Positions 27,616-39,135 are shown, numbered from the stretch's first letter. The stretch is DNA of 41,855 bases from Elusimicrobia bacterium CG03_land_8_20_14_0_80_50_18 (GCA_002780705.1 PEUP01000004.1:1-41855), one strand, 5' to 3'. Made by a program: numbers and translations. Notes: generated by a model not told the origin, from the sequence alone.

Positions 27616-28434
27616 CTATTTCAACCTCTTGATATTTTTATTACTAATCAGCGATTTCATCTGAGTGATAGCTATTTTGTTGAGCTGCATAAGCCGCTCG
27701 CTTTGCGCCAGCCCCTGATGAATCAAAACGGAATTAATGCTTTCAAGATTGGAAAGAACAACCAATTGTTCAATTGCCGCATAGTCACGGATGTTACCCT
27801 TTGCAATGGGATTTTCATCCCGCCATTCTTTAGCTGTTTTCCCGAACAATGCCATATTGAGCATATCCGCTTCTGAAGCATAAACAAAGTTAATTTGCTG
27901 TTTAGTCAGTTCTTTCGGTATAAGGTTATCCTTGATTGCATCGGTATGAATCCGGTAATTGACCTTAGCAAGGGTCCGCTGAAAATTCCAATCCAGTTTC
28001 AACCGTTTATTTTCATCATCTTTTAATCGCTGAAATTCCTTAATGAGATATATTTTGAACTCAGGACTTAGCCAACTACCAAACTCAAAAGCGATATCAC
28101 GATGGGCAAAAGTTCCACCGCCATAACGTCCGGCTTTTGAAATTATACCGATAGCATTTGTCGCTTCAATCCATTTGCGGGGTGTTAGGTTAAAACTGTT
28201 TAAACCAGCCTGACTTTTAAAGGTCACGAATCCGTTACCTTTAAAATCAGGGTTATGAAGTTCCTCCCATATACCGATAAACTCAAGCGTATTACGATTA
28301 CGCATCCAACTGTAAATCATCGTATCATCACCAAAGTTTTTGACCATGTCTGTCAATGAAATATAATCATCATTATTTCTGCTAATAATTGTAATTTCCG
28401 TTTCTTTAACTATTATGGTCTTATTTTTTTTCAT
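27616..28434 (-). CDS. KilA-N domain-containing protein (phage/plasmid-type DNA-binding domain + conserved C-terminal domain)
   Basis: 272 aa. TIISRNNDDYISLTDMVKNF...MIYSWMRNRNTLEFIGIWEELHNPDF is a typical KilA-N/ORF6N N-terminus. The gene and both flanks are visibly more AT-rich than the neighbours. Confidence 0.75.
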   Translation of the reverse strand: MKKNKTIIVKETEITIISRNNDDYISLTDMVKNFGDDTMIYSWMRNRNTLEFIGIWEELHNPDFKGNGFVTFKSQAGLNSFNLTPRKWIEATNAIGIISKAGRYGGGTFAHRDIAFEFGSWLSPEFKIYLIKEFQRLKDDENKRLKLDWNFQRTLAKVNYRIHTDAIKDNLIPKELTKQQINFVYASEADMLNMALFGKTAKEWRDENPIAKGNIRDYAAIEQLVVLSNLESINSVLIHQGLAQSERLMQLNKIAITQMKSLISNKNIKRLK

Positions 28435-30635: not shown

Positions 30636-31883
30636 TTATTTTCTGATCTGGCCGCTGCCGGATATGATATATTTGTACGATGTTAATTCCTCAAGGCCCA
30701 CGGGCCCGCGGGGATGGAGTTTCTGATTTGATATCCCTATCTCGGCGCCCATACCGAATTCGCCGCCGTCGGTAAACCGGGTTGAGGCATTGTGGTAGAG
30801 ACAGGCGGCGTCAACCGCGCTGAAAAATGTCTTCGCGGCATTTTTGCCGGAAGCGACTATGGCCTCGGAATGGCCTGAGCCGTGCGTGTTTATAAACTCG
30901 CAGGCATCATCTATCCCGCTGACGACTTTTATGGATATTATCTTAGCCAGATATTCGGTATCCCAGTCCGCGGGCGACGCGGCTTTTATATCCGGCAGAA
31001 TCTTTCTTGTCTCCGGGCAGCCCCTCATCTCAACCCCGTTTGATGCATAAACCCTGTGTATCATGGGCAAAAATTTCTTTGCGGCGTCTTTGTGCACCAG
31101 CAGATTCTCTATGGCGTTGCACACACCAGGCCGCGACACCTTTGCGTTGAGCGCTATGTCAACGGCCATTTTCATGTCAGCGTCTTTGTGCACATAAAGA
31201 TTGCAAACCCCTTTTCCGTGATAGATCACGGGGATTCGCGATTTTTTAACGACAGCGTTAATAAGGCCCTCACCGCCGCGGGGGATCACCGCGTCTATGA
31301 GGCCGTTCATCTTTAGAAGACTGTCAACTGTCCGCCGGGAACTATCTTCCACGAAAAACACCGCGTCTTTTATCTCGGCGGGCACGGCTGTCATGACAGC
31401 GTCATAAACGGCCCTATTGCTTTTGACGGCATCGGAGCCGCCGCGGAGAATCACCGCGTTACCCGATTTAAGGCACAGCGCCGCGACATCGCTGGTGACA
31501 TTCGGTCGGGATTCATATATCACCATCAATGTGCCCAGCGGAACGGAGACCTTCCTTATATTAAGACCGTTCGGCCTTTTTCTGACAGACAGCACCCTGC
31601 CCAACGGCGAGGGAAGACGCGACAGATCAACGACCTGGGAGGCCATGGCGCGTATTCTTTTTCTGTCCAGACTCAGCCTGTCTATGAAAGCGGCATCCTT
31701 CCCCGAAAAAAGAGCCCTGCTTATATCTTTTTTATTGGCGGCGATTATTTTGCTTTCGCATCCTATGATGTTCCGGGCTATTTTCCTGAGCATGCTGTTG
31801 ATATCGGAATCTTTCATCCGCTCAAGTATTCTGCCCTGCCGCCGCATCCGGCGGAAAATCTCGCGGTAATCCGTTTGATTCAT
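30636..31883 (-). CDS. proA: Glutamate-5-semialdehyde dehydrogenase (gamma-glutamyl phosphate reductase)
   Basis: 415 aa. ALDH-fold ProA pattern with the catalytic Cys context [14 protein letters not shown] and C-terminal [13 protein letters not shown]. Confidence 0.92.
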
Positions 31884-32518
31884 CTGTTCTCTTTTATATC
31901 AGGAAGCTCTTTGAGAGCCTCTCTGATTTTCTCTTCAGGATATGCGTAATCTGTCAGATTGCCCTCAAAATAAGCGTCGTATGAACTCATGTCAAAATGG
32001 CCGTGGCCGCTTAGGCAGAAAACGATGCACTTTTCCTCGCCGGTCTCCTTGCACTTCAAGGCCTCGTCAATCGCCGCTCTTATCGCATGCGAGGATTCCG
32101 GAGCGGGTATTATGCCCTCCGTCCTGGTGAAAAGAACGCCGGCCTCTTTGTTGAAATAGGCCTGCGCCACGGAAGTGTTGGGCTTATGGCTTCCCGCCGG
32201 AGAAACGCTCTCGTCCTTGAAATAGATTCTTGCCGGTGTTTTCAGAGCTTTTTCAAGACGGGTCGCTCTTTTAAGCGGCGAAGGCCGCCATATCTTATAT
32301 ATTTCCCTGACCTGCTCAGGGATCTCTATCCAGCGCTCCGTTGACATCTCCTGCTTGATCAGACTCTCTGGAAAAATTGCCAAGAGGTCTTCCGGACCAA
32401 GCGGCTGTCCCGTTTTAGGATTGAGCGGCGGCGCCAGCGGTTGGGGAAGATCAGCCTGGATGTTATACCACGCCTCGGGAATTTCTTTTTCTGAAAGATA
32501 AATTTTTTTATCGGCCAC
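31880..32518 (-). pseudogene. TrpB2-type (TrpB-like PLP enzyme) gene carrying a large in-frame internal deletion (N-terminal ~127 aa joined directly to C-terminal ~85 aa)
   Basis: 212-aa ORF with a GTG start and GGAGG 4 nt upstream. The N-part is [13 protein letters not shown]...[30 protein letters not shown]. It is followed immediately by [49 protein letters not shown], which in full-length TrpB2 (~430-450 aa) lies about 240 residues further on. The core, including the GGGSN phosphate loop, is absent. The junction is near comp. 32135-32140. Confidence 0.7.
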
Positions 32519-32576
32519 AGCGCCTCCAAATCGGGACGGCTATGTCCCGGCTCTTCACTAACCTTCATACAGTCGG

Positions 32577-32606
32577 ATATTACCAAATTTTGACGGGCAT
32601 GGGCAA
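32577..32606 (-). promoter_or_regulatory. Sigma70 promoter with extended -10 (TTGCCC-N18-[TGG]TAATAT) for the trpB2-remnant/proA operon
   Basis: Reverse strand: TTGCCC (comp. 32601-32606), 18-nt spacer ending in TGG, and TAATAT (comp. 32577-32582). It lies about 55 nt upstream of the GTG start. Confidence 0.5.
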
Positions 32607-32659
32607 GGGTAAGGTTTTTCGTGATTCAATAACTTAATGACTGGGTTAGGTCCTTATGT

Positions 32660-32879
32660 AATTTGACCTTGTTCATAATCATAGGCCCAAACCGCTTTAG
32701 AGCGATATAGGAAAATTTAGGAGAAAAAATCGTTAAGAATTGCGACTGTCTGACGACCCCGTAGGGGGAGGATAAGCAACCTGCCTACCGGCAGGCAGGT
32801 TTAGATTTTTGGTCCGTCAAAAATTTTCCGTCTAGCGAAAAAGCGGTTTGGGCCTATGATTGGGTTCTGAAATTTGACC
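32660..32879. mobile_element. MITE-like or structured-RNA element: a 185-nt core (32677-32861) closed by a perfect 22-bp inverted repeat and flanked by the 9-bp direct repeat AATTTGACC
   Basis: AATCATAGGCCCAAACCGCTTT (32677-32698) is the exact reverse complement of 32840-32861. AATTTGACC occurs at 32660-32668 and 32871-32879. No ORF lies inside. Further internal complementary segments are listed in the findings. Confidence 0.55.
32778..32810 (+). terminator. Terminator-like hairpin inside the element: AACCTGCCT-ACCGGC-AGGCAGGTT followed by TAGATTTTT
   Basis: 9-bp GC-rich stem (32778-32786 / 32793-32801), a 6-nt loop, and a T5 run at 32806-32810 on the + strand only. Confidence 0.45.
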
Positions 32880-32902
32880 GCGGGAAAATTATGTGGTACA
32901 TT
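32874..32902 (+). promoter_or_regulatory. Sigma70 promoter with extended -10 (TTGACC-N17-[TGG]TACATT) for the tandem-HhH protein gene
   Basis: TTGACC at 32874-32879 (part of the right 9-bp direct repeat), a 17-nt spacer ending in TGG, and TACATT at 32897-32902. The SD GAGGGAGG lies before the ATG at 32956. Confidence 0.45.
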
Positions 32903-32955
32903 AAGGTGTTGGTCCGCTTATAGTTGCATCGAGTATCCTGAGGGAGGTAAATTTT

Positions 32956-33696
32956 ATGAAACGAATCATTCCGGTGCTATTTTGCGCGATTGTGTTGCTT
33001 TTTCCGTCCAGTGTCGCTGCGAAATCAAAGAAAGCGCCCAAGGCCGAGGCAAAATCAAGTTTTGAAAAAATCAATCTTAACGAAGTCAGTGAATACGATT
33101 TGAAGCAGATACCGGGAATTTCCGCATCAAAAGCCAAAGCGCTGCTCGCCTACCGCGACGAAAAAGGCGAAATAAAATCAATCGAAGAGCTAAAAGAAAT
33201 AAACCATGAAACCAAAAGCGGAAAAACGAGCTATGATTTCGCCACATCAAAAGGCGCCTGGACAAAACCCATAAAACTTCTTATGGACGCCGATGTGTTT
33301 ACAGTCAGCGGAGGTGTGGGTGTGGTCGATCAGAACGCGCTTCATAAGCATCTGTTTCCGAAACCCCGAGATATAAACAGCGCGTCGTCGGCTGAACTGA
33401 CAGCATTACCGGGTATATCCAAAGCGAACGCCCAGCACTTAATAGACAACAGGCCCTTTTCATCCATAGACGGTCTGAAAGACATTTCTTATGAAACCAA
33501 AAGCGGAAAAACCGGCTACGCCTTTGCCACATCCAAAGGCGTATGGAAAAAAGATATTAAAATTCTGATTGACAGCGGCCGCCTTGTTTGCGCGGGCTCA
33601 ACAAAAAGTTCCAAGAAAGCCGCTCCGGCCAAAGAATCAAAAAGTGACGAGCAGGACGACGGCCAGGAAGAATCAGACGAACCGGAAGAATATTAA
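32956..33696 (+). CDS. Secreted protein with two tandem ComEA-like HhH modules, each followed by a conserved ETKSGKTxYxFATSKGxW extension; acidic C-terminal tail
   Basis: 246 aa with signal peptide MKRIIPVLFCAIVLLFPSSVAA. Module 1 is INLNEVSEYDLKQIPGISASKAKALLAYRDEKGEIKSIEELKEINHETKSGKTSYDFATSKGAWTKPIKLLMD. Module 2 is DINSASSAELTALPGISKANAQHLIDNRPFSSIDGLKDISYETKSGKTGYAFATSKGVWKKDIKILID. The tail is DEQDDGQEESDEPEEY. Confidence 0.65.
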   Translation: MKRIIPVLFCAIVLLFPSSVAAKSKKAPKAEAKSSFEKINLNEVSEYDLKQIPGISASKAKALLAYRDEKGEIKSIEELKEINHETKSGKTSYDFATSKGAWTKPIKLLMDADVFTVSGGVGVVDQNALHKHLFPKPRDINSASSAELTALPGISKANAQHLIDNRPFSSIDGLKDISYETKSGKTGYAFATSKGVWKKDIKILIDSGRLVCAGSTKSSKKAAPAKESKSDEQDDGQEESDEPEEY

Positions 33697-38832: not shown

Positions 38833-39135
38833 ATGAGCGTATTTGAGGCTGCCATGCTCATCTGTTTCGGCATAAGCTGGCCGGTTTCTATAACAAAAAC
38901 CCTGCGAACAAAAATCGTGATCGGAAAAAGCCCGCTCTTTATGGCCATAGTCTGTTTCGGCTATTTTTGCGGGCTTATTCACAAAATACTGTACTCTTTT
39001 GACTGGATCACGGTTCTTTACGCGCTGAACATGATCATGGTCGCTGTTGACCTCGGGCTTTATTACACTTATCTGCCGGAAAAAAACTCCCCGATGTCAA
39101 ATGTCAACCTGCCTGCCGGTCAGGCAGGGACCTGA
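38833..39135 (+). CDS. Small 3-TM membrane protein, PQ-loop/SemiSWEET-like by motif resemblance
   Basis: 100 aa. FGISWPVSITKTLRTKIVIGKSPLFM resembles the PQ-loop segment (LPQxxKxxKTKSxxGxS). The last ~10 codons (NLPAGQAGT) are read through a palindromic repeat. Confidence 0.4.
   Translation: MSVFEAAMLICFGISWPVSITKTLRTKIVIGKSPLFMAIVCFGYFCGLIHKILYSFDWITVLYALNMIMVAVDLGLYYTYLPEKNSPMSNVNLPAGQAGT
39108..39128. repeat. Palindromic hairpin CCTGCCTG-CCGGT-CAGGCAGG, related to the 32778-32801 hairpin (REP-like motif)
   Basis: AACCTGCCTGCCGGTCAGGCAGG (39106-39128) versus AACCTGCCTACCGGCAGGCAGG (32778-32799). The stem sequence and the CCGG-containing loop are the same. Confidence 0.5.

Follow-up and report, generated by a model that had tools for sequence, protein, structure and literature searches.

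The window, by which we mean the whole 41.8-kb stretch analysed here, comes from the chromosome of an uncultured member of the Elusimicrobiota; the source names read "Elusimicrobia bacterium" MAGs. Two divergent operons meet at a spacer of 437 bp, which houses the element that is the subject of this report. On the minus strand, leftward of the spacer, lie a truncated TrpB2-like gene, proA, nadD and others. The rightward genes, on the plus strand, encode a secreted ComEA-like helix-hairpin-helix protein and a patatin-like lipase, and include rsmG, parA and parB. The promoter of the ComEA-like gene has a −35 box TTGACC (32874-32879), a 17-nt spacer and a −10 box TACATT (32897-32902) with an upstream TG. 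On the other side, the minus-strand hexamers TTGCCC (32601-32606) and TAATAT (32577-32582) probably function as the −35 and −10 boxes of the leftward operon. These hexamers, together with an AAATTTG just upstream of the −10 box, are conserved in the alignment of the outgroup loci described below.

The TrpB2-type PLP enzyme gene to the left of the element (31880-32518, minus strand) encodes only 212 aa, in which the N-terminal ~125 aa are fused to the C-terminal ~85 aa, the middle having apparently been deleted. At the same place, outgroup genes encode 462 aa (L005) and 454 aa (L009), and L008 has none; the truncated form is identical across all window-type contigs in which the gene was called whole. 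Further left, a KilA-N domain gene (27616-28434, minus strand) lies in a low-GC stretch (0.44 versus ~0.50) between a radical-SAM gene and rsfS. Given that these two genes are adjacent in outgroup L008, the KilA-N gene appears to be a second lineage-specific insertion, ~5 kb from the element. The ComEA-like protein (32956-33696) contains an internal tandem duplication, with two helix-hairpin-helix modules. In a metagenome contig (L001, protein P0006), recombination between the repeats has removed one unit, giving a 151-aa variant. The mismatches of this contig stem from that deletion between two internal repeats of the gene and do not represent strain divergence.

Between about 32000 and 33000 the gene strand flips from minus to plus exactly at the spacer, where the cumulative GC skew has a local minimum, and rsmG-parA-parB lies just downstream. 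These features would suit a replication origin, but a DnaA-box cluster is absent near the locus and the outgroup spacer there is merely 200-250 bp, so that the spacer is probably not an origin. By Pfam, no transposase or recombinase was found among the scanned or precomputed-Pfam genes, which cover most of the 41.8 kb. The same set contains no HUH/RAYT-type domain, and the scanned window genes include no tyrosine or serine invertase.

Structure of the element

The original prediction described a non-coding element closed by a perfect 22-bp inverted repeat and bracketed by a 9-bp direct repeat, with inner pairings and a terminator-like hairpin; all of these features are present where it placed them (Table 1). 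The two arms are exact reverse complements; a search of the 41.8 kb that allowed up to 3 mismatches returned these two matches only, against 0 in shuffled sequences. The halves of the element remain ~79% complementary over 42 nt, extending past the perfect arms. At its 3′ end the right arm runs into the right copy of the flanking repeat, the two sharing 6-7 nt (TATGATT). The 8 nt beyond the left arm show no complementarity to the 9 nt beyond the right arm, and the GTTCAT of the left 8 nt is retained in a sister lineage. On inspection, neither XerCD/dif-like nor hix-like dyad symmetry was found within an arm.

Table 1. Positions of the element's parts and of the neighbouring promoters (window coordinates)
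Feature	Position	Strand	Basis or remark
Promoter of leftward operon (TrpB2-like remnant, proA, nadD), putative	32577..32606	-	read from sequence; context, outside element
Left flanking-repeat copy TTAATGACTGGGTT...ATGTAATTTGACC, ending in AATTTGACC	32634..32668	+	repeat search
Outer left 8 nt TTGTTCAT	32669..32676	+	between left direct repeat and left arm
Left arm of perfect 22-bp inverted repeat, AATCATAGGCCCAAACCGCTTT	32677-32698	+	identical in sister lineage (L043)
Interior, 141 nt	32699..32839	.	opposite orientation in sister lineage (L043/L044)
Inner helix, 5′ half GGAAAATTT	32710..32718	+	pairs with 32821-32829
Window-lineage-only segment, 61 nt	32756..32816	+	gap in L043 alignment
Intrinsic-terminator-like hairpin AACCTGCCTACC/GGCAGGCAGGTT, then TAGATTTTT	32778..32810	+	terminator scan
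Inner helix, 3′ half AAATTTTCC	32821..32829	+	inverted-repeat search
Right arm AAAGCGGTTTGGGCCTATGATT	32840-32861	+	exact reverse complement of left arm
Outer right 9 nt GGGTTCTGA	32862..32870	+	between right arm and right direct repeat; identical in sister lineage
Right AATTTGACC (32871-32879) and promoter of ComEA-like gene	32871..32902	+	promoter scan

The predicted inner pairings, GGAAAATTT with AAATTTTCC and TGACGACC with GGTCCGTCA, are likewise in the sequence, and the helix starting at 32710 is paired in both minimum-energy folds of the window version and in the folds of the sister version. The plus strand folds at −83.3 kcal/mol (z = −7.7 versus shuffles) and the minus strand at −75.7 kcal/mol (z = −7.35). 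The terminator-like hairpin has a stem (32778-32801) of 9 pairs, a loop of 6 and a T tail to 32810; the ORF map of the window contains no plus-strand gene upstream for it to terminate. Both this hairpin and a small CCCC-GTA-GGGG hairpin (32757-32767) lie within the 61-nt segment that is restricted to the window lineage. As read from the sequence, the junctions of this segment share CG (GACG/ACC ... TCCG/TCA).

The terminator-like hairpin has a near twin at 39106-39128, where a 100-aa ORF ends shortly before lptF. The twin sequence AACCTGCCTGCCGGT corresponds to the minus strand of 32787-32801 and is identical over 15 nt. Hairpins of the form CCTGCC...GGCAGG occur only at these two places in the window, and at none of the outgroup loci. 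A hairpin like that at 39106-39128 may have been the source from which the 61-nt segment was copied.

A further short sequence, GGAAAATT, occurs three times: at 32710-32717 and 32822-32829 (minus strand), which form an inverted pair within the element, and at 32883-32890, in the spacer of the ComEA-like promoter. At that position the spacers of the outgroup ComEA-like promoters have a different sequence. It could be a shared protein-binding motif, or it could reflect a mere AT-rich bias. As predicted, no ORF of at least 30 aa lies inside the element. A smaller ORF was considered at AGGAG (position 32720) and rejected, as no canonical start codon follows.

The window contains exactly two copies of the 9-mer AATTTGACC, which lie 8 nt (32660-32668) and 9 nt (32871-32879) outside the arms. 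Given that 17% of shuffles also have two copies of this 9-mer somewhere in the window, the 9-mer repeat alone is weak. The repeat is however longer and imperfect. It matches at 13/15 over 15 nt and, by eye, extends over ~24-33 nt (21/24 plus an 8-nt gap), where the copies read TTAATGACTGGGTT[AGGTCCTT]ATGTAATTTGACC and CCTATGATTGGGTT-CTGAAATTTGACC, or in short form ATGACTGGGTT...AATTTGACC and ATGATTGGGTT...AATTTGACC. As proposed, the −35 box of the downstream gene comes from the right copy. The promoter, TTGACC-17-TACATT, is conserved in relatives and appears in all outgroups as TTGACA...TATGTGGTAnAnT.

Empty sites and an interior inverted in place

Orthologous loci were fetched via homologues of the ComEA-like protein. 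Six contigs (L005-L010) from four outgroup Elusimicrobiota lineages, whose ComEA-like proteins are 78%, 70%, 66% and 65% identical to that of the window, have the same gene order and an empty site. Their spacer is short, with one ATTTGAC(A) as the −35 box, and neither alignment nor blastn revealed any element-like sequence in it. The outgroup promoters stand back to back, with −35 boxes ~25-40 nt apart. Compared with these loci, the window has 211 extra bases that are bracketed by the duplicated AATTTGACC. Given that the outgroups have one ATTTGAC and lack the element, the window carries a 211-bp clade-specific insertion. The four empty lineages thus bear out the view that this is inserted DNA and not ancestral spacer. 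The element is a ~200-bp quasi-palindromic non-coding insertion between back-to-back promoters, specific to one small clade of groundwater Elusimicrobiota.

The pattern expected of a target-site duplication was found, namely AATTTGACC on both sides of the insert and one ATTTGAC in the empty outgroup sites, with the caveats that the repeat extends imperfectly beyond the 9-mer and that its left copy is missing in the sister lineage. In outgroup L008, the empty site reads ATGACTGGGTTC ... GAAATTTGACA, once. Judged by its sequence, the left repeat copy looks like the ancestral spacer and the ancestral −35 box, now severed from its −10 box.

The element also occurs in a sister lineage (L043/L044). 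This lineage encodes protein P0030, which belongs to the same 90% protein cluster as the window's ComEA-like protein and is 93.5% identical to it (16/246 residues differ), and its flanks have ~90% DNA identity. The position of the element and the nucleotides that border it agree between the lineages, with GTTCAT directly before the left arm and GGGTTCTGAAATTTGACC directly after the right arm; over 32862-32900, L043 is identical to the window. The interior has been inverted in place between the two lineages: that of L043 is the reverse complement of the window's, such that 255/272 columns match when the window interior is flipped and 217/272 when it is not. By our own count on the alignment, 78/80 positions of the shared interior are identical. 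The breakpoints of the inversion lie within the 22-bp arms, and the sequence outside the arms is unchanged.

Two stretches of the window are absent from L043. One comprises 61 nt (32756-32816) with both hairpins, and the other 64 nt (32608-32671) with the left AATTTGACC, a region into which the left repeat copy falls. In addition, two substitutions and a 1-nt insertion set the right arm of L043 (AAAGCGTTTTTGGGCATATGATT) apart from that of the window. These three are the only differences in the arms, and the ~100 other shared nucleotides have 2 changes. The concentration of the differences in one arm suggests one arm-to-arm conversion tied to the inversion, by which the window repeat was perfected; as the simplest account, we infer that this conversion, coupled to the in-place inversion, made the repeat of the window lineage perfect. 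Since only two lineages bear the element, either orientation may be ancestral, and each indel may be a gain in one lineage or a loss in the other.

The element has diverged little between the two lineages. At fourfold-degenerate sites of two flanking genes, 27/158 differ between the window and the sister lineage (17%), whereas 5/125 positions differ in the shared element, counting arms and interior (4%; binomial p = 7e-6 versus fourfold sites). The 5′ UTR to the right of the −10 box is also visibly far more diverged than the element. Given that the junctions are the same in both lineages, the insertion predates their split, and its age combined with its low divergence suggests purifying selection. 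An exchange of the segment between the lineages is a less likely alternative. The original prediction took the perfect stem as favouring a young mobile element. This argument is weakened by the age of the insertion, which is older than the divergence of two lineages now 17% different at fourfold sites. It is also undercut by the sister's right arm, which is imperfect and holds all three arm differences.

In the data within reach, the element is present in a single copy. There is no second copy in the 41.8-kb window or among the fetched loci, and a 20-mer of the arm has no match in 185,579 GTDB species genomes. A two-arm 10+10 pattern gave 24 matches in the GTDB genomes, which by our own estimate is about the number expected by chance, and none is related by blastn. 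In a metagenome scan, the 20-mer found the same locus only, in a collection that is incomplete and missed JGI contigs carrying the locus. A 16-mer had 7 chance matches in viral contigs, with nothing related among them, and blastn against plasmids and phages returned nothing relevant. Six-frame peptides had no matches in a collection of 5.8 billion proteins, a weak result in that known partial ORFs overlapping the element were also not recovered. Arm searches of GTDB genomes, metagenomes, plasmids, phages and viral contigs revealed no autonomous IS with the same ends. Finally, MEGAHIT-style assemblies (k141_ names) contain contigs of 35-45 kb in which the 185-211-nt element causes no break; to judge from the behaviour of such assemblers, these genomes should lack a second identical copy of at least 141 nt.

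The idea of a MITE, which the original prediction had offered, therefore stands in part. The orthologous loci are polymorphic, as it predicted, but the element is single-copy in everything searched, and no parent IS or transposase was found. A multi-copy MITE family is rejected on the absence of a related copy in the genome, metagenome, viral, plasmid and phage searches, and a REP/REPIN element on the single copy and the lack of a RAYT-type domain in the Pfam-scanned or precomputed-Pfam window genes.

Two loci with a superficial likeness were set aside. They have 21-22-bp perfect repeats with a GGCCCAAACCG core and a repeat spacing similar to the element's, and are located in a Methylococcaceae MAG (L021, 2311-2483) and a gammaproteobacterial MAG (L039, ~60-400). 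The sequences are unrelated: neither aligned with the element by blastn at E up to 1. L039 consists of a single very long palindrome, which may have arisen as a fold-back during assembly. A different artefact affects a public contig of the locus itself (L047; ENA ERZ27293404, k141_274073), in which positions 1-19 are the Illumina adapter ACGTGTGCTCTTCCGATCT fused to the locus.

Window-type contigs from many samples span the element, and every one of them (15/15) has the window orientation, with three minor internal variants only; both sister-type contigs (2/2) have the opposite one. Orientation thus tracks lineage and not sample, as counted on consensus contigs, which cannot show minority orientations. 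Several short contigs end within 32700-32877, one of these ends being the adapter artefact of L047. We considered this clustering as a sign of mixed orientations, but for contigs of these lengths it is not clearly above chance.

Proposed origin and role

Our preferred reading, to which we assign a probability of roughly 0.45, is a one-off MITE-like foldback insertion at the −35 box that was later inverted in place, arm to arm, and is now constrained. A single foldback or MITE-like DNA would have inserted at the ComEA-like −35 box in the common ancestor of the window and sister lineages. The insertion would have duplicated AATTTGACC, such that the right copy could still serve as the −35 box, and the inserted element would never have amplified. 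Arm-to-arm recombination or template switching would then have flipped the interior in one lineage, and the same event would have perfected the repeat of the window lineage by conversion of its arms. Separate indels would have gained or lost the 61-nt two-hairpin piece and the 64-nt left flank. Today the element would be constrained, probably as DNA that acts in cis between the divergent promoters, where it would provide a spacer or a binding platform. A flip leaves its quasi-palindromic layout (the arms, GGAAAATTT/AAATTTTCC and AAAAATC/GATTTTT) nearly unchanged, which would explain how the inversion came to be tolerated.

Some observations fit a mobile origin poorly. The inverted repeats are subterminal: 8-9 nt separate them from the direct repeats. 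The sister lineage lacks any left repeat. A clean 9-bp target duplication does not square with a flanking repeat that is longer, contains mismatches and extends into the right arm. Given that no other copy, parent IS or transposase was found, the element lacks the multi-copy property that defines MITEs; its transposition-type origin is putative. Moreover, purifying selection is unexpected for a dead selfish element, so the preferred reading has to add a hypothetical host function. Being single-copy, unusually well conserved and inverted between sister lineages, the element is not simply a young jumping element, nor is it a known RNA.

The inversion could instead be the work of a site-specific recombinase encoded elsewhere, which would flip the 141-nt segment between the 22-bp repeats and thus alter the ComEA-like gene and/or the divergent proA-nadD operon, e.g., by turning the internal terminator. 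This reading is doubtful. It accounts for the two orientations that occur in nature between identical outer flanks, and for inverted repeats that bound the very segment that flips. With 22-bp repeats and a segment of 80-141 nt, the element is within the size range of known invertons. The segment lies directly upstream of a promoter, the window version holds a unidirectional terminator, and conservation well above neutral would be expected for recombinase sites with a regulatory payload. However, each lineage has one orientation in all of its contigs, and the Pfam-annotated genes over most of the window include no recombinase. A scan found no sigma-70-like promoter inside the segment in either version, and, because the native promoters lie outside it, the terminator belongs to no known transcription unit in either orientation. 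In the sister version the terminator is absent and the right arm degraded.

The strong conservation and the perfect window repeats would nevertheless be compatible with a working switch whose lineages are in opposite majority states. We regard such an Elusimicrobiota switch, operated by an invertase encoded elsewhere and phase-varying the periplasmic ComEA-like DNA-binding protein and/or proA-nadD, as distinctly unlikely. To our knowledge, no inverton has been described in the phylum Elusimicrobiota.

A locally generated palindrome is also improbable. According to this alternative, a hairpin or template switch copied neighbouring sequence in inverted form during replication or repair, and a later event of the same type inverted the loop and made the arms perfect. 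The right arm's last 7 nt together with GGGTTC (TATGATTGGGTTC) match the spacer of the L008 empty site (TATGACTGGGTTC), and TATGATTGGGTTC is also matched in the left flank of the window. Given this match to the ancestral spacer, the repeat looks partly derived from the target, with the left arm as its inverted copy. The complementarity of the halves beyond the perfect arms agrees with such an origin, for which a single copy and a missing transposase would be expected. Beyond those 13 nt, however, the element does not resemble the outgroup spacers or the rest of the window, such that its bulk has no local source, and this mechanism gives no reason to expect the exact 9-bp duplication of the −35 box.

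Least probable is the multi-helix RNA that the original prediction had put forward beside the MITE, which would here be a structured sRNA gene of ~120-185 nt, forming a long rod with a branched tip and ending, in the window version, at the internal terminator. Its fold is very stable on both strands (z about −7.5), the sister version still forms a long hairpin (z = −4.0 and −5.2), the plus strand has a hairpin followed by a T-tract, conservation is above neutral, and an RNA gene within the segment would survive inversion. Yet the idea gained no positive support. Rfam gave no match in the whole window at the gathering score, and nothing relevant, 6S RNA included, at E up to 10 in 32400-33100 and L043, so we reject known RNA families (6S RNA, riboswitches and others) for both versions. 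The fold lacks a large central bubble. A scan found no promoter inside the element or reading into it in the window version, and none is common to both versions, the sole inward candidate of the sister version being TTGACG-17-AATCAT, from the left; the terminator is missing from the sister version. The differences between the window and L043 elements are few, and are unpaired or pair-breaking; the changes in the sister arm break pairs and are not compensated. Unlike housekeeping RNAs, the element is absent from related lineages.

If the preferred reading, a foldback insertion later inverted in place, is true, a one-off insertion of this type can hit a −35 box and spare the promoter, and the loop of the element can flip in place between the element's own repeats. 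Such a flip can perfect the repeats, so that a perfect inverted repeat need not mean youth, which calls for caution in repeat-based annotation of MITEs and invertons in metagenome-assembled genomes. The conservation beyond that of neutral sites suggests that the element may have been recruited for a cis-regulatory task, as a spacer or binding platform that lies between two divergent promoters. If it were an active switch, phase variation would extend to a poorly studied groundwater phylum and to a protein of the DNA-uptake type. No major open question is altered by the element.

Comparison with known systems

The 6S RNA (Rfam RF00013 and relatives) is similar in its length of ~185 nt, measured arm to arm in the element, in its long closing stem and in its rod-like fold. 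The element differs from it in lacking a covariance-model match, the large central bubble, synteny in relatives and a promoter.

Kelchner and Wendel reportedly described hairpin-associated small inversions in plastid non-coding DNA in 1996. Small inversions that are flanked by hairpins and need no dedicated recombinase are well documented in plastid DNA, where the loops measure 4-50 bp (PMC12371153). As in the element, inverted repeats form a stem whose loop is reversed without moving elsewhere, and the orientations are fixed differences between related lineages. The present loop, by contrast, is 80-141 nt long and bacterial.

Invertons such as E. coli fimS, Salmonella hin, C. difficile cwpV and the Bacteroides capsule promoters share with the element a short segment between inverted repeats of ~20 bp, a position just upstream of a gene and the occurrence of both orientations. 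Switches of the cwpV type act via a terminator that is formed in one orientation only, and the window version likewise carries an orientation-dependent terminator. Unlike invertons, the element is fixed in orientation in each lineage, as seen in consensus assemblies, and has no nearby recombinase and no inner promoter. Its native promoters lie outside the segment, so that a flip has no obvious target.

Bacterial MITEs and foldback repeats, such as the Correia/NEMIS elements of Neisseria, ERIC/IRU and RUP, resemble the element in being non-coding, ~100-300 bp long and able to form a long inverted-repeat hairpin. They too are intergenic and adjacent to promoters, with a duplicated target and an empty site in related genomes. 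Such repeats can re-use or supply promoter boxes and terminators. By contrast, the present element is a single copy and not a dispersed family, its repeats are subterminal by 8-9 nt, the searches returned neither a partner transposase nor sequence relatives, and it is conserved above neutral between two species. The element is thus apparently a singleton addition, with no sequence relatives found, to the small repeat-bounded non-coding insertions. Its in-place flip, the repeat that this flip probably perfected and its strong conservation set it apart from a routine MITE.
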